A DNA stretch of 64,000 nt, taken from positions 87,266 through 151,265 of the forward strand of contig JACPWO010000001.1 in the NCBI GenBank assembly GCA_016197005.1. The letters are read 5' to 3'. Made by a program: the position numbers and the translations under genes. The first letter of the stretch is position 1. Each line of letters starts with the position of its first letter. Below the pieces are notes generated by a model. It was not told the origin of the DNA and searched no databases. It saw nothing but the letters and a program-made list of their open reading frames with translations. The DNA comes from Candidatus Anderseniibacteriota bacterium (GTDB lineage: Bacteria; Patescibacteriota; Andersenbacteria; UBA10190). Below, one piece after another: positions 54,851 to 64,000 of this stretch.

Positions 54851-56257
54851 GTGTCGCTCTATCGGACATATCGGCCAAAAACCTTTGGCGAAGTCGTAGG
54901 TCAGCCCCACGTCGTGGGGGCCTTACAGTCGGCTATTTCTTCTAATCGGGTAAGTCACGCCTATCTCTTCCAGGGCCCACGCGGTACGGGAAAAACAACC
55001 GTAGCTCGTCTACTGGCGAAAGCAGTTGGCGCTTCTGGCCTAGATATCACCGAAATAGATGCAGCGAGCAATCGCGGCATTGATGATGTGCGGGCACTAC
55101 GGGAGAGTGTTTTGACCTCTCCGACTGGAGGGAAATACAAAGTATATATTATTGACGAGGTGCACATGCTTACCGGCGAGGCATTCGCCGCGCTTCTTAA
55201 AACCTTAGAGGAGCCCGTCGCTCACGCTATTTTTATTCTCGCCACCACTGAGCTACATAAAGTTCCAGATACAATAAAATCGCGCTGCCAAGTGTTCCGA
55301 TTCCGCCGAGCGTCTGCTGATGAAATGCGCGGACGCCTCTCGCATATTCTCAAAGCAGAAAAACAGAAAGTAGGGGACGATATTCTTTCCTTTATTATTA
55401 GTCGGAGTGACGGCTGTTATCGCGACGCCGAATCTCTGCTCGGACAAATTCTGACGCTTAAAACAGAGACAGATTCATTGGGGGAGATGATGGAACTTCT
55501 TGGTATGCCATCGCCGGAACTTGTTTCCAATTTTCTCTCTACCCTTATTAGCGGAGATGCAGCTGGAGCACTGGAGACAGCTCAAACAGCATACGAACGA
55601 GGATACGATCCAGAGCTTTTCATTGAAGAATCTATTCGCACTGCCCGTGATCGGGCAATTACCGAAACGAAAGCCGGGGGCACCTCAAAAAATCTCCCGC
55701 TCATTATCCGTAACCTCGTTCAAGCCAAACAAGATTTGGCGTATGTGCCCCAGCCCTTGATTGCACTGCAGTTAGCCATCCTTAATTCCGTTCCTATCCG
55801 CGGAAACAATCTGCCTACAGCTCCAGTTGCAACCAGTAAGATGAACACTCCACCGATCAAAACAGCGCCTATTAAGAAAGTAACCCCGGTAAAGGAAAAA
55901 GCAGCTCCTATAGTTTCCACGTCGGTTATTGCACTAGAACAAATTCAATCTGCCTGGCCTTCCGTTATTGAAGCAATGAAACCAAAAAGCCCGGCTGCCT
56001 CAACATTTTTACGAGCAATGGAGGCACAAAGTATTAGTGGCAGCACTCTCGTGATTGCTGCACAGTATGCACTCCACCGTAATTTCTTTGAAAAGCCAGA
56101 TAATAAGCAGTTGCTTACTACGATATTAAGCGATCAACTAAAAGCTGACTTAGAAGTACGAATTGCACTCGAAAGTTCAGGGAAGGCACCGGCTACGAAT
56201 GGACGAGCTCAAGCTGAAGCTCAACTTTTACAGAATGTTCAGGAAATATTTAGATAA
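54851..56257 (+). CDS. dnaX: DNA polymerase III subunit gamma/tau
   Basis: YRPKTFGEVVGQ, P-loop GPRGTGKTT, DEVHML, and the SRC sensor (KSRCQ). Confidence 0.85.
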   Translation: MSLYRTYRPKTFGEVVGQPHVVGALQSAISSNRVSHAYLFQGPRGTGKTTVARLLAKAVGASGLDITEIDAASNRGIDDVRALRESVLTSPTGGKYKVYIIDEVHMLTGEAFAALLKTLEEPVAHAIFILATTELHKVPDTIKSRCQVFRFRRASADEMRGRLSHILKAEKQKVGDDILSFIISRSDGCYRDAESLLGQILTLKTETDSLGEMMELLGMPSPELVSNFLSTLISGDAAGALETAQTAYERGYDPELFIEESIRTARDRAITETKAGGTSKNLPLIIRNLVQAKQDLAYVPQPLIALQLAILNSVPIRGNNLPTAPVATSKMNTPPIKTAPIKKVTPVKEKAAPIVSTSVIALEQIQSAWPSVIEAMKPKSPAASTFLRAMEAQSISGSTLVIAAQYALHRNFFEKPDNKQLLTTILSDQLKADLEVRIALESSGKAPATNGRAQAEAQLLQNVQEIFR

Positions 56258-56460
56258 TACGTTTATCGAAGGAGAAATTACGTAATCCGGAAATTCCTCT
56301 ATAAGTGGCTCTTTCAAAAAATCGTATTTTTTACCAAAAGGCTTAAACTTCATTTTTGTATATATCTTATTAACAGTGTTCGCCACTATGGTCTAGAACC
56401 TTACTTTAGGGTTTTGAGAGGCCTTTGGCAAAGCCTTTGAGGGGTTTTGAGGACGAAATA

Positions 56461-56635
56461 TGTTACAGGATGTTACACCATAAAAGGATGATTTCTGTAA
56501 CATTTACAGAATAAACGGAACAAATGGGACACCTAAAAAAGAGTTGGTCTACTGTTCCGTTTGCTATTTCTAAGCTTTTGTAGCCTAGTAAAATGTTACA
56601 AATGTTACAGATTTTTGAGGTGTTGGACTGTAACA
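56461..56635. repeat. cluster of six TGTTACA/TGTAACA heptamers
   Basis: TGTTACA at 56461, 56471, 56594 and 56603, and TGTAACA at 56496 and 56629. GTTTTGAG direct repeats lie just upstream at 56411-56455. Confidence 0.5.
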
Positions 56636-56643
56636 TTCCGCCC

Positions 56644-56694
56644 AAAATGAGACAGTCTGAGACACTATAAAAAGAGCCGTCTCGTGTCTCATTT
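56644..56694. terminator. bidirectional terminator-like inverted repeat
   Basis: AAAATGAGACA...TGTCTCATTTT perfect 11-nt arms with an inner GAGAC/GTCTC extension. Overlaps the stop of the minus-strand small gene. Confidence 0.5.
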
Positions 56695-57018
56695 TCCTGA
56701 GTTCTGTTGCTGGTATTCCAGAACCTTCTCGGCTGGTGACATTCCGCCTAATAATCTATGTGGAAAGTAGTTCCAGGCATCGTTGATGACTTCTATGATA
56801 TTCTGCAGCTCCACTGCTCCCTGGCCGGTATCAAACATGGCAATAATATCTGTCATAGCGTCCGTACCATCCTCGTTAAAGATGACCTCCTTGATATGAT
56901 CCAGGCTGAAATCACTGCCGGTTTGCTCAAGCATTACAGTTAGCTCCTGCTCAGTTTCAGCTCGCTTATCGGTAATTTGTTGCTGGTTCAAAATTTCCAT
57001 ATCCACATAGTGGCGCAT
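56689..57018 (-). CDS. small acidic protein, paralog A (109 aa), C-terminal W-x3-P-x3-LGG-x-SP motif
   Basis: About 70% identical to the ORF at 61541-61864. Confidence 0.5.
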   Translation of the reverse strand: MRHYVDMEILNQQQITDKRAETEQELTVMLEQTGSDFSLDHIKEVIFNEDGTDAMTDIIAMFDTGQGAVELQNIIEVINDAWNYFPHRLLGGMSPAEKVLEYQQQNSGK

Positions 57019-57055
57019 TTTCTGGAGCCTGAAAAGTTAGTAATCTGAATTTTGA

Positions 57056-57107
57056 GTAAAGAAAAACTCGGAAACTAAGTTTGTCGTAGAGACAATAAGT
57101 TTCCGAG
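57056..57107 (-). terminator. rho-independent terminator downstream of the tRNA pair
   Basis: CTCGGAAACT (57068-57077) pairs with AGTTTCCGAG (57098-57107). On the minus strand the hairpin is followed by TTTTTCTTTAC. Confidence 0.5.
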
Positions 57108-57111
57108 TGAA

Positions 57112-57184
57112 TGGAGGATAGCGGATTCGAACCGCTGACCTTCCGCACGCCAGGCGGACGCTCTCCCAACTGAGCTAATCCCCC
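57112..57184 (-). tRNA. tRNA-Ala (anticodon GGC)
   Basis: Manually folded cloverleaf: acceptor GGGGGAT/ATCCTCC with G3:U70, D-arm GCTC-AGTTGGGA-GAGC, anticodon stem TCCGC/GCGGA with loop CTGGCGT, T-arm AGCGG-TTCGAAT-CCGCT. CCA is not encoded. Confidence 0.85.
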
Positions 57185-57188
57185 GAAG

Positions 57189-57259
57189 TGGACCGCCGGA
57201 GAATTGAACTCCGATCTCCTGATTGCAAGTCAGGTGTCTTCCCATTAGACCAGCAGCCC
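57189..57259 (-). tRNA. tRNA-Ala (anticodon UGC)
   Basis: Acceptor GGGCTGC/GCGGTCC with G3:U70, D-arm GTCT-AATGGGA-AGAC, anticodon stem CCTGA/TCAGG with loop CTTGCAA, T-arm CGGAG-TTCAATT-CTCCG. Lies 4 nt from the first tRNA. Confidence 0.8.
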
Positions 57260-57404
57260 ACTGAAGAACAAAGGCCGATGCCAGGTCGCCAAGGTAGGAA
57301 GCCGTCTCCTTTAGAAGGCCGACGCGACCAGCTCGGACGTTGCCTGACTTTCACGCTCGGCCAACACGCGCCCCGATCAATTCGCGCTCGGGAGCACACG
57401 CTTT

Positions 57405-58100
57405 TCATGGGTGCCAGTTCCAAACGGCTTCCGCGCCGCTCATTTCTGGCAGGTACTTTCCGTCCTTCTTGTCAGGACGGACGTACTTTGCTAGAAATTC
57501 GACTTGGCCTCGCCGCTCACAGCGGTAGACCACACCCTCAATCTCATCGCACGGCCACTTATGCCGGGAATGAATTTCGAGGGCTTTCTCAACACCAATA
57601 GCATCTCCAACGTGGAGAAGACTTGGTGTCGAAAAGTGTCCATCGATGCGCTCGTGAAGCGCATCGTACGAAATTCGCCGGTCTCCGATCATCAGGTCAA
57701 AGACCGCGAACGGCTCACGGCCATTCAGATCGTAGACCGTCCCATGGGCTTGGGCGAGCCATTCGCCGCATAATCGTTCACCATTCTTGAGGATCACCCG
57801 AAAGCGATCTTCATTTTGGCGAACCCACTGAGCGAACAAATGATGTTGCTCATAGGGTGAACTATCTGCGGGCCAGCCAGCGCGGATCAGTGGATGTATT
57901 GCGTCGTCGATTAACGCGACGGCGACGCAGGATCCATCCAGTTTTTCCTGCACGACGATCACGTCATGCGAATCTCGCACCTTCTCGGTGCAGATTCTTT
58001 GCTGGCCTTCGGGGATTGACCAATCCCCCGGACCCATGCGACTGCATGGTAAATGTGGGATCGAGCCGTAGGCCCGACGTCCCAGAGGTTTCTTGGACAT
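57405..58100 (-). CDS. ATP-dependent ligase-family nucleotidyltransferase (RNA-ligase-like minimal NTase, 231 aa)
   Basis: Covalent nucleotidyltransferase motif I EKLDGS, motif III-like FAVFDL, motif IV EGVVYR and motif V LAKYVR in the canonical order. Visibly GC-richer than the flanking DNA. Confidence 0.55.
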   Translation of the reverse strand: MSKKPLGRRAYGSIPHLPCSRMGPGDWSIPEGQQRICTEKVRDSHDVIVVQEKLDGSCVAVALIDDAIHPLIRAGWPADSSPYEQHHLFAQWVRQNEDRFRVILKNGERLCGEWLAQAHGTVYDLNGREPFAVFDLMIGDRRISYDALHERIDGHFSTPSLLHVGDAIGVEKALEIHSRHKWPCDEIEGVVYRCERRGQVEFLAKYVRPDKKDGKYLPEMSGAEAVWNWHP

Positions 58101-58308
58101 TTGGCCTCCGGTTTGTTGGGGTAGGTTGTCAATGAACGCTTATCACCCTAGCATACAACGAGATTAATGTCAATATTGGCTGTTTGGCCTTGTTCAATAA
58201 TAGCTATGTTAAGGTAATAATATTTCATAAGTACGGTGTCTCTAGTGGACTTACCTACAACTTACCAACTAGCATCTTTTTCAACCCAGCGGCACTGTTC
58301 CTGCTACT

Positions 58309-59598
58309 GTGGCTGACATTACCTACTGCCTTTACGCAAGAAAAAGCACGGAAAGTGACGAACTCCAAGCCCTTTCCATTGATTCGCAAATCAAAGAGAT
58401 GTTAGATCAGACAAAGCGAGATGGAATTACTGTCGCGGAAATCAGGCGGGAAAGTCACTCCGCCAAGGAGTCGTTTACCAGACCAGTATTCCGGCAACTT
58501 ATTGAAGATATTCGCAGCTCAAAATTCAGCGGCATTCTAACTTGGGCTCCAGACCGTTTAAGTAGAAACGCCGGTGACCTCGGGGCACTAGTTGACCTCA
58601 TGGATCAAGGCAAGCTAGCGGAAATCAGAACGCATGGGCAGATATTCCGTAACTCACCAAATGAGAAATTTCTACTGATGATTCTGTGTAGCCAAGCCAA
58701 GCTGGAAAATGATAACCGGAGCGTCAATGTGAAGCGTGGTCTTCGAGCCAAGTGTGAGATGGGCTATCGTCCCGGCATGACCCCGCTCGGCTACGTAAAT
58801 CTCAAGTACGAGAAGAAAGGCGACAAGAAGATAGTCCTTGATCCCAAACGGGCGCCCATCATTCGCGAGATGTTCGAGCGGGTAGACGCAGGCGCCAGTG
58901 GCCGAGATGTTCTGCGCTGGATTAACAACGAGGCAGGATTCACTACGCGTACGGGCAAGAAAGTCGTTCTATCGGCGATATACGTCATGCTGCGCAATCC
59001 CTACTACTGCGGGAAGTATGAATTCCCGAAAGGCGGCGGTACTTGGTACAAAGTCGCCCACAAATCTATCGTGCCGGTACGTCTTTGGAAAAATGTGCAA
59101 GAAAAACTCACCGGTGCGCCCAAAGCTAGGCCAGGCAGCAAGACGTTCGACTTTACCGGCATGCTCACGTGCGGAGCCTGCTTGTCGGGAGTAACGGCTG
59201 AAGATCGGTTTAAGGATATTATTGACGGCACCAAAAGACGCTACGTCTACTACCACTGCACCAGAGCTCGTGACCTGGCGTGTCCGGAGCCGTACATTCG
59301 CGAGGAAGCCTTACTCGATCAGCTGCTAGATATCATCGATACGGTGGATTTGAACGTACTGGAAGTGCAGGAAAAACTGGCAGATGACCTAAAACGATAT
59401 CAAAGATTCGCTATGAAGGTACTACAGCGTGAGGATACGCAAATAATGCCGGACTCCGACATCCGCAGCTACGCCAAACACATGCTGTTAGAAGGAAATC
59501 GGGATGAGCGCCGGGAGATCATCGCCAGCATCACAACTAAACTGTATTTACAAAACAAGCGGATCAGTATTAAAACACCGAAAATACTTCACGCCTAG
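58309..59598 (+). CDS. large serine recombinase (resolvase-domain integrase with recombinase domain and zinc ribbon)
   Basis: N-terminal catalytic YARKST(E)SD...SIDSQ serine motif, a recombinase domain, and a Cys cluster CGAC...HCTRARDLAC. Confidence 0.8.
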   Translation: MADITYCLYARKSTESDELQALSIDSQIKEMLDQTKRDGITVAEIRRESHSAKESFTRPVFRQLIEDIRSSKFSGILTWAPDRLSRNAGDLGALVDLMDQGKLAEIRTHGQIFRNSPNEKFLLMILCSQAKLENDNRSVNVKRGLRAKCEMGYRPGMTPLGYVNLKYEKKGDKKIVLDPKRAPIIREMFERVDAGASGRDVLRWINNEAGFTTRTGKKVVLSAIYVMLRNPYYCGKYEFPKGGGTWYKVAHKSIVPVRLWKNVQEKLTGAPKARPGSKTFDFTGMLTCGACLSGVTAEDRFKDIIDGTKRRYVYYHCTRARDLACPEPYIREEALLDQLLDIIDTVDLNVLEVQEKLADDLKRYQRFAMKVLQREDTQIMPDSDIRSYAKHMLLEGNRDERREIIASITTKLYLQNKRISIKTPKILHA

Positions 59599-59882
59599 CC
59601 GGTTCGAATCCTGATACAGGGCTGAATCGGACAACTTATTATCTTTTGACTTTCCGCCAACGTGACGCAGTAACGGACTATGGTCGCATTTAAAACGAGA
59701 AATAAGTGTTCACTTGGCGGGACGCGTTTAGAACCTTTAACTGGTCTAAGGCTATACCTTATCCTGCTGTGGAGCTAGGGCAGATTAGGCACTTGTTAGC
59801 GTTGGTGTAGCCCCTAGCCCCCTTAGCGTTCGTCTAATGCCAAATGAGCGACCCCCCACCCCAAAAAACACCACCCCTAGAA

Positions 59883-59980
59883 GGTGGTCATAGGAAACAA
59901 AAAGAAACTTCCTAATTGGTAGCGCGGACACCCCCTACTCAAAGAATCGGGACTCCTATCAACTTAAGGGGTGGTCATAG
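59883..59980. repeat. direct repeat GGTGGTCATAG x2 plus C-rich tracts in the recombinase-proximal intergenic region
   Basis: GGTGGTCATAG at 59883-59893 and 59970-59980. TAGCCCC mini-repeats and a CCCCCCACCCCAAAAAACACCACCCC tract at 59810-59880. Confidence 0.4.
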
Positions 59981-61519
59981 CCCCGCAATATCTTCTCTGA
60001 TTTTTTTGGGAAAGATAGTTCGATAGTCATCTGGAAATAAGTGAATAGTCTTATTGAGGTCATCTTGAAAGCTGTTTCTAAGGTAAGGATCAAAACACCA
60101 CGAGGATTTTTCTGGATCAAACACCTTACCCTGCATTACAGTCTTGACCCCCCTGCTTTGTATAATCTGTGCGCCGTGCTCAAACTCCTGAACTGACATT
60201 ACGGTAAATGGTTTTTCTGTAAGCCACTCGACAGGTAGCTGTGCAGCCTTCATTTTTTCTTCAACCTTTTTCTGTACTTTGCGGAGAGGATCGCCCATTA
60301 AGAACCAATCCTCCAAGATTACAACAATGGGAAAGATTGCCTTCGAGCCATTATATTTATATTTTGGACTTTTATATTTACCTGCCTGATAATATTGGAT
60401 CGTCTTATATATCTGCAAAGCAGCGTCCGCAATAATATCAAGTTGTTTTTCGAGTTCAGAAGAATCAAATAGCTCGACTTTGGCCGGCATTGTGAGTCGT
60501 TTAGTTTTACACTCAATAAATAATGCCGCATCGTCCTGATCTGCTATCCAATCTATTTTAGGGGCATTGAAGCTTTGAGTTTGCTCCTGTGGGTAAATGA
60601 CGAATTTGTTGTCTTTGTTGGCCTTTTCCAGAACCTCACCAATATAATACTCGAACGATTCTCCAAAAACAGTATCGAATCCGCTTTGACGACAAAGTTC
60701 ATAATATATTCCATTTGTAACGCGCCAAAATAGAAGTGCCGGCATTGGGCAAATTAGACTATCCTGACCACTAATATTAATTCTGATCAAAGGATAGATT
60801 TTGAATGAGTCGTGATAGTAGAAAAATTTCTCATCGATACTTCTTTCTGTGGGCGATTGCAATTTTACTTTAAGGCTTTCGTAGTCTGTAGAAAAAAGTT
60901 TTAGAAATAAATCTAGCTTTGATACATCTAGGTCGTCTTGGCCTAGGTTAATTTCGGGTGGATAAAATAAGGAGAATTTAGTTACATATACGCCTAGAGT
61001 AGCTATGCCCAGCAGATAAATCTCTTGCGTTGTGAGCCCAGTAGTTTCTTTGACGATTTTATCTAGGGCAGGATAACTAAAAATTTTAAAATAACGGGTG
61101 AGATAAATCTTATTGAAACCGTGTATTTGCCAAGGAAACTGACGATGAGCCATCCGATGTATCTCAACCAAAACATTTATCTTGCCGCGATATATCTTCG
61201 TAAGGTCATTTTCAAAATCCTTAACCTTATTGATCGCGTTGGCAAGATGATTCTGTTTTCGTAGATCGTATCTGGCCTGTGTAAATTGAGGGGAGTTGAT
61301 AATAATTTCCCTTGCGAGGGTTTCTAGTTCCCAATTGTTAATTACTCGCGGGCTTTGCCTTAAAGCATCCCAGTGAACATCAACGTCTATTGGGAAAGGC
61401 TTTTGAAGCCAGAGATATTGAGAATATGATCGTATGGTTGCAAGAGCATCGATTAGATTGAGTTGTCTTAAATAGTTTCTAAGCGGTTTATATGCTGCAA
61501 ATATTTCATCATTAGGCAT
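59975..61519 (-). CDS. hypothetical 514-aa protein with C-terminal PD-(D/E)xK-like nuclease motif
   Basis: IDWIADQDDAALFIECKTK (D...ExK) in the C-terminal third. The N-terminal ~300 aa shows no recognisable motifs. Confidence 0.45.
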   Translation of the reverse strand: MPNDEIFAAYKPLRNYLRQLNLIDALATIRSYSQYLWLQKPFPIDVDVHWDALRQSPRVINNWELETLAREIIINSPQFTQARYDLRKQNHLANAINKVKDFENDLTKIYRGKINVLVEIHRMAHRQFPWQIHGFNKIYLTRYFKIFSYPALDKIVKETTGLTTQEIYLLGIATLGVYVTKFSLFYPPEINLGQDDLDVSKLDLFLKLFSTDYESLKVKLQSPTERSIDEKFFYYHDSFKIYPLIRINISGQDSLICPMPALLFWRVTNGIYYELCRQSGFDTVFGESFEYYIGEVLEKANKDNKFVIYPQEQTQSFNAPKIDWIADQDDAALFIECKTKRLTMPAKVELFDSSELEKQLDIIADAALQIYKTIQYYQAGKYKSPKYKYNGSKAIFPIVVILEDWFLMGDPLRKVQKKVEEKMKAAQLPVEWLTEKPFTVMSVQEFEHGAQIIQSRGVKTVMQGKVFDPEKSSWCFDPYLRNSFQDDLNKTIHLFPDDYRTIFPKKIREDIAGL

Positions 61520-61540: not shown

Positions 61541-61864
61541 TTAAAGGTTCCCCTCTTGCTTTTGCTGGTATTTCAACACTTTTTCCGCCGGAGAGAGGCC
61601 GCCCAAAGTTTTATGCGGAAAGTAATTCCAAGCGTCATTAACAGTTTCGATGATATTTTCCAGCTCGGCTGCCCCTTGGCCTGTATCAAACATAACGATG
61701 ATGTCAGTTAAGTCGTCCGTGCCTTCTTCGTTGTAGATAATTTCTTTTATGTCATCCAAGCCAAAGTCGCTCTTAGTTTCTTTAAGAAAAGCTAGAAGCT
61801 CCTGCTCGATCTCGTTGCGACGATCAATGGCCTGCTGCTGGTTAAGAATCTCCATAGCATTCAT
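61541..61864 (-). CDS. small acidic protein, paralog B (107 aa)
   Basis: About 70% identical to paralog A. Start codon overlaps the stop of the upstream nuclease gene (ATGA). Confidence 0.5.
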   Translation of the reverse strand: MNAMEILNQQQAIDRRNEIEQELLAFLKETKSDFGLDDIKEIIYNEEGTDDLTDIIVMFDTGQGAAELENIIETVNDAWNYFPHKTLGGLSPAEKVLKYQQKQEGNL

Positions 61865-62616
61865 TCGTTATGCCTTCCTATGGCTTCGATATAGCTGCAA
61901 TAGTCGCAGCCAGAATTATTGGATGGGATTGTATTTTGATTCAAACACGCGTGGATTTCTGAAATAGTATCTTCGATCCAAGAGTCATCACCTTTATACG
62001 GGATCAGAGTAATTTCAAATTCAAGCTTACCGTCGAATGCCCTTCGATCAGTCTGGCCATTGCAATAAACAAAGTAGCCGGTATCAGAAACGGTATAGCC
62101 ATTCTGTCGTAGTAACCATTGATACACCTCCATCTGTCGCTTATAGCCATCGTGCCATTCCTTGTTCAGTTCAGTGATCTCCTCGTTTTTAGACGTGGCC
62201 TTATAATCAACAACAATGTATTCGCCTTTGGAGTTCTGCCAAAGGTCATCAATCGCGCCAAAGATTAATAAATTCGTCGCCTTGTGCAGGTGTTGGATAC
62301 CCGTAAAGTTGTGCCGCCACTTGTCTAAATCTTCGTGCGGAACAGGTTGAGCATCGACACCATACTTTTCAATAAGAGGGTGCTTAGTGCCATTGGCTCG
62401 ATGAATATCAAACTCTTGCTTTAGGAGATGATCGACGGCCGAATTTAACGCAAAGGGAAAGCCTGGCGGTCGGCCAACGCCCAGCTTGCGGTCGTGGTAG
62501 AAACAGCGAGGGCAGTCTAAAAATAAATCAATTTTGGAACGGGAAAGCTTAAACGGCTCAATAGCAGCAGGATCATACAAGCCTTTTGTTCGTTGGGAAT
62601 TATAGTATTCAGACAT
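61861..62616 (-). CDS. RecB/Cas4-like PD-(D/E)xK nuclease with four Cys (CxxC...CxxC)
   Basis: Motifs in order: CPRC, GAIDD, IVVDYK, QMEVYQWLL (QxxxY), CDYC. Confidence 0.6.
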   Translation of the reverse strand: MSEYYNSQRTKGLYDPAAIEPFKLSRSKIDLFLDCPRCFYHDRKLGVGRPPGFPFALNSAVDHLLKQEFDIHRANGTKHPLIEKYGVDAQPVPHEDLDKWRHNFTGIQHLHKATNLLIFGAIDDLWQNSKGEYIVVDYKATSKNEEITELNKEWHDGYKRQMEVYQWLLRQNGYTVSDTGYFVYCNGQTDRRAFDGKLEFEITLIPYKGDDSWIEDTISEIHACLNQNTIPSNNSGCDYCSYIEAIGRHNE

Positions 62617-62618
62617 TG

Positions 62619-63554
62619 CTATGAAGGTAAGCTTTTAATGTAGGGTCTTAATGCCTTTTCAAGTCGCACCATTGCATCAATAACCTTAATCTGTGCCTGC
62701 TCCCACGTTGCCTTATCTTTTAATCCATACTCCTTAAACCTAAAGCTAATTCGACAAGCCCTACGATGTTCTAGGCGTTCCCACGTGAGGTTGCCGCCGA
62801 ATGTATTCTCGATTACGTCCTTATGTTTGTACAAGGCATCAAAACGTTCCTTGTTGAGCGTTGGATACTCCTTGCCTCTGTCGAGATACAACTCTGCGCC
62901 GACAAAGCCGGTGGTGATTACATAATTAAAACTTAGACCGCTTTTGCCAGCCCCCGTTCCAATCCAGCTATAAATCGTGGGGGAGGTGTTTGAATGTAAT
63001 TTTGTTCTTTCTTTCGCCTTTTCCAACAACTGCTGCCAGAACTCCTTTCGCAGATGATGACGCTCCGCGTATTCTTTCTTTTCTAAACCGACCTCTTTAG
63101 CAATTTCGGTGGGCTGCACGATCACAGTGAAAAGAGGCGCGGGATCAGAACCGCCTATTTTCACTGCCTCCACTTGCACTAAATAAAATGCAATGTCGGC
63201 TGGTGTATGCTCGTTAAGCCAATGCACGGCTTTCTCGTGCTCTTCTCGTGGGCTACTGGTGATCCATATGGCCGCCTTAGCATCAAGATTGGTCATATAT
63301 GTGAGCACTTTACCTAAGTGGTCGTGGTCAGTTTTTTCCAACTGATTTTCAACAATGGCCAAATGACCGTCGCTATCTTCAAGCATAATGTCTAAGTAAA
63401 AGCTGCCGACTGATTTTTCTTTTTCGACAATTGAAAATGATGTTTCTAACGCCTCATTAAGAGCATCAATATTTTCAGCAAGCCACGACGTAAAATCTTT
63501 GGCTTCATTTTTCCAGATTTCTCGAAGCGGAACTCGTTGTAGCTTTCCAATCAT
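62619..63554 (-). CDS. NucS/DUF91-like PD-(D/E)xK nuclease domain fused to a C-terminal domain of unknown function (DUF4268-like)
   Basis: FYLDIMLEDSDGHLAIVENQLEKTDHDHLGKVLTY matches the D-x(n)-E-x-K/Q core of NucS-type nucleases. Confidence 0.5.
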   Translation of the reverse strand: MIGKLQRVPLREIWKNEAKDFTSWLAENIDALNEALETSFSIVEKEKSVGSFYLDIMLEDSDGHLAIVENQLEKTDHDHLGKVLTYMTNLDAKAAIWITSSPREEHEKAVHWLNEHTPADIAFYLVQVEAVKIGGSDPAPLFTVIVQPTEIAKEVGLEKKEYAERHHLRKEFWQQLLEKAKERTKLHSNTSPTIYSWIGTGAGKSGLSFNYVITTGFVGAELYLDRGKEYPTLNKERFDALYKHKDVIENTFGGNLTWERLEHRRACRISFRFKEYGLKDKATWEQAQIKVIDAMVRLEKALRPYIKSLPS

Positions 63555-64000
63555 ATTGTTGATCCAAAACTACGGATTATTCTTTTTTCTTCATCGCTAA
63601 TTTTATAAAGATTCATAACCAATTCATCAATTTCCTTGTTCAGTTTTTGAATCGTTTGAAGTAGTGTCAACAACTCTTGCTTAGTTGTTGTAAAGAAGTC
63701 CATCAATTCTGATTTTTTCTGGATAGAAACTGATACTTTAATAGTTCTTAAAAAATCTTCGAATTCCTGCTTATAAAAACTTTTGGCCTTTTTGGGGATT
63801 GAGGGCAGCGAGAATTCGTGAGCAAATAACTTCTGTGCCTTTTCAAGCTTTTGGTTAAAATCCCCACTCATCGAAAGCAATTGACGAACTTTTTCTACAA
63901 TCTCACCCTGCGCACCCTCTGATGCTTTATATATAGGGAATTGTGCTAATTCATTGACTTTAAATTGAGGAAAAATCTTTCGCTGAAATTTGTTAAATGT
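63551..64000 (-). CDS. 3' end of a larger gene continuing beyond the window, whose C-terminus resembles type IIG RM / PglX-like N6-adenine methyltransferase tails (partial)
   Basis: The reading frame is open to the window edge with no stop in 40 codons upstream of the track's TTG. The C-terminal EIDELVMNLYKISDEEKRII matches the hydrophobic-LY-x-[LI]-[ST]-x-EE-x-x-I tail of such MTases. Confidence 0.4.
   Translation of the reverse strand, partial: TFNKFQRKIFPQFKVNELAQFPIYKASEGAQGEIVEKVRQLLSMSGDFNQKLEKAQKLFAHEFSLPSIPKKAKSFYKQEFEDFLRTIKVSVSIQKKSELMDFFTTTKQELLTLLQTIQKLNKEIDELVMNLYKISDEEKRIIRSFGSTI

Follow-up and report, generated by a model that had tools for sequence, protein, structure and literature searches.

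What is the DNA that follows dnaX in the genome of "Candidatus Andersenbacteria," and how did it come to lie there? The organism belongs to the Patescibacteria (candidate phyla radiation, CPR) and has a tiny genome; the DNA analyzed here, a stretch of 64,000 nucleotides referred to below as the window, comes from a metagenome-assembled genome. The region right of dnaX carries repeats, two alanine tRNA genes, an RNA ligase gene, and a gene for a large serine recombinase (LSR), and a reading made from the letters alone (below, the sequence-only reading) had taken it for a horizontally acquired, possibly still mobilizable element whose right end lies beyond the window. Here, the locus was followed on the 492-kb contig JACOTL010000006.1 (GCA_016178385.1) to window-equivalent position 82544, and positions above 64000 are given on this extended scale. 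The arrangement is the same in independent assemblies of four sequencing runs. As argued below, the region is probably a composite island, formed by at least two successive insertions of LSR-bearing elements at a tRNA-Gln gene, with a prophage remnant as its left part.

The foreign nature of this DNA is indicated by a comparison of gene orders. A scan for DnaX over the genome collection returned distant homologs only (≤36% full-length identity), and synteny was instead assessed by a DnaX protein search and comparison of contigs. The gene order PBP-GreA-AspRS-SerRS-FtsQ-PMT-176aa-GtrA-dnaX is common to all three syntenic relatives (loci L179, L180, and L182), whose DnaX proteins are 52 to 56% identical. 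All three also have a tRNA-Gln(UUG) gene 42 to 620 nt downstream of dnaX on the same strand. The linkage of dnaX and tRNA-Gln is seen in five more Patescibacteria loci (L009, L037, L057, L078, and L033), in one of which, from Nomurabacteria, tRNA-Gln is on the strand opposite to dnaX. None of the three relatives has a tRNA-Ala, ligase, or serine recombinase gene at its dnaX locus. In the genome studied here, the tRNA-Gln(UUG) gene is found 18.9 kb from dnaX (with positions 56258-75153 in between), ∼11 kb past the end of the window. This gene, which has no encoded CCA, is an ortholog of the tRNA-Gln genes in the relatives, and homology extends into its 33-nt leader, which aligns with the spacer that separates dnaX from the tRNA in L182 (76% over 105 nt, E = 4e-16). 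To the right of it lies ordinary chromosome, with genes for an FAD oxidoreductase, an Xer-like recombinase, ParB, a sigma-70 factor, tRNA-Arg, and XseA. The DNA directly after dnaX shows no homology to the dnaX-downstream DNA of the relatives. Thus, 18.9 kb has been placed between two genes that are adjacent in the relatives, breaking a conserved adjacency next to a tRNA gene. The block, whose composition also deviates, is a foreign genomic island between dnaX and tRNA-Gln. Gene content beyond tRNA-Gln is different in every relative, which suggests that the dnaX-tRNA-Gln junction might be a conserved insertion hotspot in Patescibacteria.

The features that frame the island and those that make up its left part, block A (∼56258-59860), are as follows.

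54851-56257, plus strand: dnaX (DNA polymerase III gamma/tau; Pfam DNA_pol3_delta2 and DnaX_C), which closes the conserved core block and flanks the island on the left
56258-56688, no strand: noncoding region with the ATGTTACA array and no supported gene; a hairpin at 56646-56697 ends ORF109
56689-57018, minus strand: ORF109, an uncharacterized domain with a paralog, ORF107, in block B (71% identity to 61541-61864)
57066-57108, minus strand: intrinsic terminator of the tRNA pair, an inverted repeat (−20.3 kcal/mol, z = −6.1) followed by the U-run UUUUUCUUU
57112-57184, minus strand: tRNA-Ala(GGC), from ARAGORN and the Rfam tRNA model (67.4 bits), with a canonical body and a G3:U70 pair
57189-57259, minus strand: tRNA-Ala(UGC), from ARAGORN and the Rfam tRNA model (64.7 bits), noncanonical, with a G3:U70 pair
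57260-57404, minus strand: spacer of high GC content that separates the ligase gene from the tRNA genes, with a fold not better than those of shuffled sequences
57405-58100, minus strand: ATP-dependent RNA ligase of 231 aa, consisting of the nucleotidyltransferase domain only (PF09414 RNA_ligase, E = 3.9e-18)
58101-58308, no strand: divergent promoter region between ligase and LSR1, with promoter-like sites at 58244-58217 (minus) and 58126-58154 (plus), which are consensus matches only
58309-59598, plus strand: LSR1, an apparently intact LSR of 429 aa, in which the Resolvase, Recombinase, and Zn_ribbon_recom profiles are matched over almost their full length
59599-59860, no strand: junction of blocks A and B, extending over 262 nt from LSR1 to the terminator of a GapS1-like gene, with tRNA-Gln-like fragments in mixed orientation
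73520-75214, strand opposite to tRNA-Gln: LSR2, a full-length LSR of 564 aa with resolvase catalytic, recombinase, and zinc ribbon domains
75154-75225: tRNA-Gln(UUG), at the right end of the island

Most of what had been read from the letters alone withstood this comparison. The horizontal acquisition is supported by the order of dnaX and tRNA-Gln in the relatives and by the deviating composition of the block, the syntenic regions favor an island over conserved core gene order, and the right end does lie beyond the window, at tRNA-Gln. The noncoding, repeat-rich stretch after dnaX, the tandem of tRNA-Ala genes with G3:U70 pairs and a terminator of its own (ARAGORN, Rfam, and folding agree), the GC-richer ligase-family gene, and the LSR gene transcribed divergently from it, with its three domains, were all recovered. 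The proposal of one mobile element fared less well: the DNA is foreign, but a simple single element is at odds with the second recombinase, LSR2, at the far end.

The composition of the block, which the sequence-only reading had singled out for a quantitative check, does deviate from that of its surroundings. Among the 60 open reading frames (ORFs) of the window (mean GC content 0.462, standard deviation 0.030), the ligase gene is the most GC-rich, with a GC content of 0.550 (z = 3.0) and a GC content at third codon positions (GC3) of 0.578 (z = 3.1); LSR1 has a GC3 of 0.567 (z = 2.9). The deviation starts with the first gene after dnaX, ORF109 (GC3 z = 2.0). It is reversed in the GapS1-like gene right of LSR1, which has a low GC content (0.386, z = −2.6), and GC3 drops from 0.57 to 0.36 at the boundary between block A and the right part of the island, block B.

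Both recombinases are linked to tRNA-Gln genes, here or elsewhere. In LSR1, the resolvase domain (PF00239) spans residues 8-152, matched to profile positions 3-143 out of 145, followed by PF07508 (179-268) and PF13408 (282-341), and the serine nucleophile S13 can be read from the translation in the motif YARKSTES. The protein matches the integrase family phrog_95 (E = 8e-62), and its best NCBIfam match is CcrB, far below the cut-off. Twelve homologs with 43 to 54% identity were found in IMG/VR. The closest of them (50%) is encoded on L186, a fragment of a temperate phage with genes for a methyltransferase, both subunits of the terminase (small and large), and a repressor-like helix-turn-helix (HTH) protein. 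On this fragment, a tRNA-Gln(UUG) gene lies ∼95 nt after the recombinase stop codon on the opposite strand, the same geometry as that of LSR2 and tRNA-Gln here. The reading frame of LSR2, which is only 26% identical to LSR1, enters tRNA-Gln(UUG) by 61 nt. The contig that encodes an LSR2 homolog (L200, 51% identity) ends inside the 3' half of a tRNA whose acceptor sequence equals that of the Andersenbacteria tRNA-Gln, and homologs of a small block B gene are found beside this recombinase. These associations suggest that two unrelated LSR families may use tRNA-Gln as a landing site. Two further observations concern these recombinases. The 11-mer AGAGCTCCAAA, which equals the tRNA-Gln anticodon arm, occurs at 75040-75050, ∼100 nt before tRNA-Gln and inside the LSR2 coding region. 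In IMG/VR, recombinases of the LSR1 type (L193, 4522-5325; L196, 3-1526) are accompanied by genes for DUF4268/PDC-S11 (39% identity) and MmeI-like proteins, so that similar defense cargo travels with the LSR1 family elsewhere.

The 262 nt between LSR1 and block B hold several short matches to tRNA-Gln. A T-arm piece at 59601-59617 on the plus strand includes an exact GGTTCGAATCC (59601), right after the LSR1 stop codon. An 18-mer from the acceptor and T-stem at 59762-59779 on the minus strand matches the 3' end of the L186 tRNA-Gln in 16 of 18 positions (z = 4.6; equaled by 1 of 200 shuffles), and a D-arm piece at 59829-59840 on the plus strand includes the decamer TCGTCTAATG (59830-59839). 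With the k-mers of eleven Patescibacteria tRNA-Gln genes, four 9-mer clusters were found where 0.68 would be expected (p ∼0.005, a Poisson estimate). By these matches, the fragments are probably the debris of a decayed attachment site rather than a gene. The GGTTCGAATCC copy after the LSR1 stop was considered separately as a displaced tRNA half and rejected: the best tRNA-Gln-like match lies 165 nt further on, the overall p value is ∼0.01, and there is no Rfam hit.

Two LSR families each tied to tRNA-Gln, the debris at the junction, and the jump in composition together favor serial insertion. In the scenario preferred here, block A (ORF109, the tRNA-Ala pair, the ligase, and LSR1) would have been a temperate phage that inserted first and has since been reduced. 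Block B (∼59860-75153), a defense and replication island with LSR2, would have inserted later, and the tRNA-Gln-derived attachment region of block A would have decayed after that insertion. Each recombinase, its gene at the end of its element and converging on the tRNA, would have integrated a circular element in or next to tRNA-Gln. The incoming element might have supplied the tRNA-like arm, so that a working tRNA-Gln survives. The order of the insertions and the positions of the crossovers are likewise deduced. This kind of object, an ordinary genomic island, is already well known; its cargo of two phage-type tRNA-Ala genes and an RNA ligase is unusual.

Several observations weigh against this scenario. 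Taken one by one, the tRNA-like fragments at the junction are weak matches (p ∼0.005-0.01), their orientations are mixed, and the Rfam tRNA model gives no hit to them. Logan contigs of two sequencing runs break at 59727-59765, with a 39-nt overlap, whereas those of a third run span the site with identical sequence. No true empty site is seen, because the relatives are distant (best DnaX identity among them, 59%). Compared to the three closest relatives, tRNA-Gln is inverted relative to dnaX, so that an extra small inversion is required, and no displaced tRNA-Gln copy or recognizable attachment site is present at the dnaX end of block A. As for the cargo, no end-healing enzyme (kinase or phosphatase) is encoded beside the ligase, which weakens a reading in terms of tRNA repair, and the number of tRNA-Ala genes given here is that of this locus.

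The break in the Logan contigs was considered as evidence of excision and set aside, since the 39-mer at 59727-59765 has no second copy in 82.5 kb and there is no matching contig break at the tRNA-Gln junction. The break could be a branch of the assembly graph caused by a related element or strain. The direct repeats that the sequence-only reading had noticed 3' of the recombinase do exist, as two copies of GGTGGTCATAG (59883 and 59970), but they do not exceed chance and are not attachment-site repeats. With one mismatch allowed, two or more matches are reached in 11 of 100 shuffles; the first copy overlaps the stem of the terminator of the GapS1-like gene and the second overlaps the stop codon of the same gene. 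The matching repeat that had been expected at the far end was not found: repeat searches revealed no direct or inverted repeats flanking the island, and in Smith-Waterman alignments of all intergenic regions no match exceeded those of shuffled sequences. Present-day mobility of the island, which the sequence-only reading had thought possible, is unproven; the LSR1 gene seems undamaged, but the tRNA-like site beside it has degenerated.

Of the alternatives to serial insertion, the one that survives best is a single element of ∼19 kb with two serine recombinases, which would have entered at tRNA-Gln in one step by means of LSR2, with LSR1, the ligase, and the tRNA-Ala genes as internal cargo from a previous host. 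In favor of this explanation, which we consider unlikely while granting it some weight, the intact tRNA-Gln is abutted only by the LSR2 end, the debris beside LSR1 is closer to the L186-type tRNA-Gln than to that of the host, the paralogs ORF109 and ORF107 are spread across both blocks, and an attachment site was not found at the dnaX end. However, a single element does not account for the sharp change of composition at the boundary of the blocks. It also sits poorly with the LSR1-type genes elsewhere that end phage fragments by tRNA-Gln, as would be expected of separate integration, and with the terminator of the GapS1-like gene, which directly adjoins the tRNA-like debris.

It is improbable that the tRNA-Ala pair, and perhaps the ligase gene, are native chromosomal genes, with foreign DNA starting only at LSR1. 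Reduced genomes usually keep one copy of each tRNA gene, neither tRNA-Ala gene encodes CCA, a trait shared with the tRNA-Gln of the host, and the body of the GGC isoacceptor is fully canonical for bacteria; all this would suit native genes. Nevertheless, no relative has tRNA-Ala at this locus, and the pair is flanked by ORF109, with its paralog in block B, and by the most GC-deviant gene of the window. Moreover, the UGC tRNA is of a noncanonical kind common to phage clusters, the tandem order is repeated in a jumbo phage, and the two isoacceptors bear little resemblance to each other.

Activity at present, as an inducible prophage or an excising element, is very improbable: full-length LSR1 and LSR2, the presence of an excisionase-like HTH_17 protein and a primase-helicase, and contig breaks that would fit population heterogeneity at the junction speak for it, but genes for capsid, tail, terminase, or lysis proteins are lacking throughout the 19 kb, the 39-nt sequence shared at the break is unique in 82.5 kb, no such break occurs at tRNA-Gln, and another run crosses the break with identical sequence.

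Serial insertion thus being preferred, what does the cargo of block A consist of? The ligase matches phrog_38169 (E = 1.4e-54). It has more than 3300 relatives; identity to the nearest of these is 66 to 67%, and the few that carry an organism name belong to high-GC phyla. Motif I (KxDG) is present as EKLDGS with K53, the lysine expected to be adenylated, and K53, D55, and G56 are invariant in 30 homologs, as are E113, F134-D135, E188-G189, K205, and K211, which would correspond to nucleotidyltransferase motifs III-V. The sequence gave no significant match to solved structures. An AlphaFold model (pLDDT 96.3) was used in a fold search, in which all top Protein Data Bank folds were RNA ligases, the best being the ligase domains of Rnl3, Rnl5, Trl1, and Rnl2 (TM score ∼0.5, 14 to 18% identity). 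The alignment spans only the nucleotidyltransferase part of these 320- to 400-aa targets (target-normalized TM score, 0.3-0.35). The 231-aa protein has no clade-specific accessory domain, neither the C-terminal one of Rnl1, Rnl2, or Rnl3 nor the N-terminal OB domain of Rnl5, and was therefore placed in none of these clades.

Homologs of the ligase are found in phage settings, namely, between terminase and portal genes, on a 64-kb phage-like contig, and in temperate phages of Flavobacterium, where they are annotated as hypothetical proteins. A tRNA gene on the same strand lies within 170 nt of the ligase gene in 6 of 80 metagenome loci (binomial p = 1.6e-4 against an assumed background of 1%). 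Several of these loci lie inside arrays of 5 to 34 tRNAs, beside genes for RtcA cyclase, EF-Tu, GNAT, and Dps-like proteins, in agreement with the enrichment of RNA-processing and translation genes reported for the neighborhoods of long tRNA arrays (PMC8421152). However, the tRNA-Ala genes of these arrays are unlike those of the window, so that joint inheritance of ligase and tRNAs from such arrays was rejected.

The two tRNA-Ala genes are 4 nt apart. Both have the cloverleaf, an alanine anticodon, and the G3:U70 identity pair. The D-arm of the AGCUCAG..GGGAGAGC type, which is canonical for bacterial tRNA-Ala, is present in the GGC gene, whereas the UGC gene has GGUCUAAUGGGAAGAC, a short GUCU/AGAC D-arm as in tRNA-Gln. 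The UGC gene is 82% identical to tRNA-Ala(UGC) of the Xanthomonas jumbo phages X1 and BUDD, and in Xanthomonas phage X1 a canonical tRNA-Ala follows it after 6 nt, in the same tandem as here. Identities of 80 to 88% were found with tRNAs of Ralstonia, Yersinia, and T5-like Salmonella phages. By these similarities, tRNA-Ala(UGC) is assigned to a noncanonical type that tRNA clusters of phages contain. Its body, from the D-arm to the T-arm, is matched by a profile built from tRNA-Gln genes of Patescibacteria (E = 5.8e-5), while the acceptor stem and anticodon are those of alanine; this phage-type tRNA may have been derived from a remodeled tRNA-Gln-like gene.

No promoter-like site was found in the spacer at 57260-57404, so that cotranscription of the ligase and the tRNAs is possible. 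The three genes would then form one minus-strand unit, transcribed from 58101-58308 to the terminator at 57066, with the tRNAs freed by ordinary processing. Such a cassette would supply alanine tRNAs and seal broken RNA, as is thought of phage sets of tRNAs and ligases. It is a doubtful, speculative extension that the unit ligase/tRNA-Ala(UGC)/tRNA-Ala(GGC) represents a self-contained mobile cassette for tRNA supply and repair against tRNA-cleaving toxins or defenses, perhaps domesticated in the reduced CPR genome and possibly replacing its native alanine tRNAs. If this were true, a phage-lineage tRNA with a tRNA-Gln-like body would serve essential translation.

The left end of block A is noncoding and rich in repeats. 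ATGTTACA occurs in 8 copies in the window against 1.7 expected, a number reached by none of 100 shuffles, and 6 of the 8 copies are found in 56258-56688. The array at 56460-56636 consists of two modules, each with two direct copies and one inverted copy, and RNA read from the minus strand of 56380-56700 has a strong predicted fold (−91.8 kcal/mol, z = −4.75). The module ATGTTACA-N1-2-ATGTTACA-N16-21-TGTAACAT (24 specified bases) recurs in two contigs of IMG/VR (L202, 827-1181; L203, 8225-8535), where it is part of larger intergenic arrays (9 and 13 TGTTACA copies) located behind terminators; the genes beside the arrays are without annotation in both contigs. The module looks like a protein-binding iteron or operator array of an uncharacterized phage group. 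A 60-aa ORF that overlaps the array (56463-56645, minus strand) contains two CxxC pairs and weakly matches a His-Me finger (E = 0.004). Since the array has copies in both orientations, this ORF is probably spurious. The domain of ORF109 and ORF107 has 270 cluster representatives and belongs to no Pfam family. In some proteins it stands alone, and often it makes up the last ∼100 aa of a protein of ∼300 aa; neither Pfam, PHROGs, and PADLOC nor the fused partners gave any indication of its function.

Block B begins inside the window with the following features.

59860-59888, minus strand: terminator-like hairpin of the GapS1-like gene, which holds the first GGTGGTCATAG and abuts the tRNA-like debris
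59975-61519, minus strand: GapS1-like protein of 514 aa, a candidate for antiphage defense (NCBIfam GapS1 subfamily, E = 8.7e-23; 80.9 bits, below the 320-bit cut-off)
61541-61864, minus strand: ORF107, paralog of ORF109 (71% identity)
61861-62616, minus strand: Cas4-like PD-(D/E)XK nuclease (Pfam PDDEXK_1; PADLOC Cas4 models)
62619-63554, minus strand: DUF4268 protein, the PADLOC defense candidate PDC-S11 (Pfam; PDC-S11, E = 3.4e-126)
63551-64000, continuing past the window, minus strand: 3' end of an MmeI-type (type IIG) restriction-modification gene, which encodes 1023 aa as a whole (PADLOC REase_MTase_IIG, E = 2.3e-114)

Beyond the window, these genes are followed by two unknown genes and those for the excisionase-like HTH_17 protein, a DUF5659 protein, and a Prim-Pol/AAA_25 primase-helicase and then by LSR2. 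A LOOT RNA (Rfam RF03000, 64.2 bits against a gathering threshold of 46.4) is predicted at 68479-68603 on the minus strand (L176, 7849-7973), between a gene for a 286-aa protein and the excisionase-like HTH gene. Genes for virion structure, packaging, or lysis (capsid, tail, terminase) are absent from the genes called in 56258-75225, so that the island is not an intact prophage.

The locus does not overturn current understanding, and tRNA-directed recombinases and a ligase-tRNA cassette in a CPR genome are of modest interest. Mobile elements of the Patescibacteria are poorly cataloged, and such loci could be a source of new serine integrases, directed to tRNA genes by nature, from which tools might be developed. 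The cassette also shows in compact form an association of tRNA genes with a minimal family of phage RNA ligases (phrog_38169), one that recurs but is undescribed and that is relevant to the ways in which phages and islands withstand defenses directed at tRNAs.

Compared to known systems, the ligase-tRNA cassette most resembles phage tRNA clusters with RNA repair functions, such as those of T4 (Rnl1/Pnkp), T5-like phages, and jumbo phages. Here, too, tRNA genes lie beside an RNA ligase gene on one strand, and the tRNA-Ala(UGC) type is common to the T5-like and jumbo-phage clusters and this locus. The cassette differs from these sets in being carried on an integrated remnant in a CPR genome. The ligase is unrelated in sequence to T4 Rnl1 and RtcB and is without a kinase/phosphatase or cyclase partner. 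With Rnl2, Rnl3, Rnl5, and the ligase domain of the fungal Trl1, it shares the nucleotidyltransferase fold, the KxDG lysine, and the later motifs; it is set apart from these ligases by low identity and TM scores and by the lack of their defining accessory domains. Members of its family are also embedded, near RtcA, EF-Tu, and Dps-like genes, in bacterial long tRNA arrays (PMC8421152), which are defined by tens of co-oriented tRNAs of many specificities; the locus studied here, with two tRNAs, both for alanine, falls outside this definition and resembles such arrays only in having a ligase gene next to tRNA genes. Like other defense islands, block B unites on one mobile element PDC-S11, a type IIG restriction-modification enzyme, a Cas4-like nuclease, and a GapS1-like protein, and there is nothing unusual in that.

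As for the island as a whole, it can be compared with the tRNA-targeting islands that carry tyrosine integrases, such as P4-like elements and pathogenicity islands. In both cases the tRNA gene is intact, the site is a variable hotspot, and two elements lie in series with debris between them; the differences are the serine recombinase and the lack of a clean duplicated 3' segment of the tRNA flanking the island. Among serine integrases, those that have been studied well insert into protein-coding or intergenic sites, and integration at tRNA genes is typical of the tyrosine class; literature searches found no described case of a serine integrase at tRNA-Gln. In other respects, LSR1 and LSR2 conform to the class of phiC31, Bxb1, TP901-1, A118, and the CcrA/B recombinases of SCCmec: they consist of resolvase, recombinase, and zinc ribbon domains and are encoded at the edge of their elements by the presumed attachment site, without long flanking repeats, as would be expected. 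They differ from that class in their CPR host and in their apparent target, tRNA-Gln, into which the LSR2 reading frame runs.

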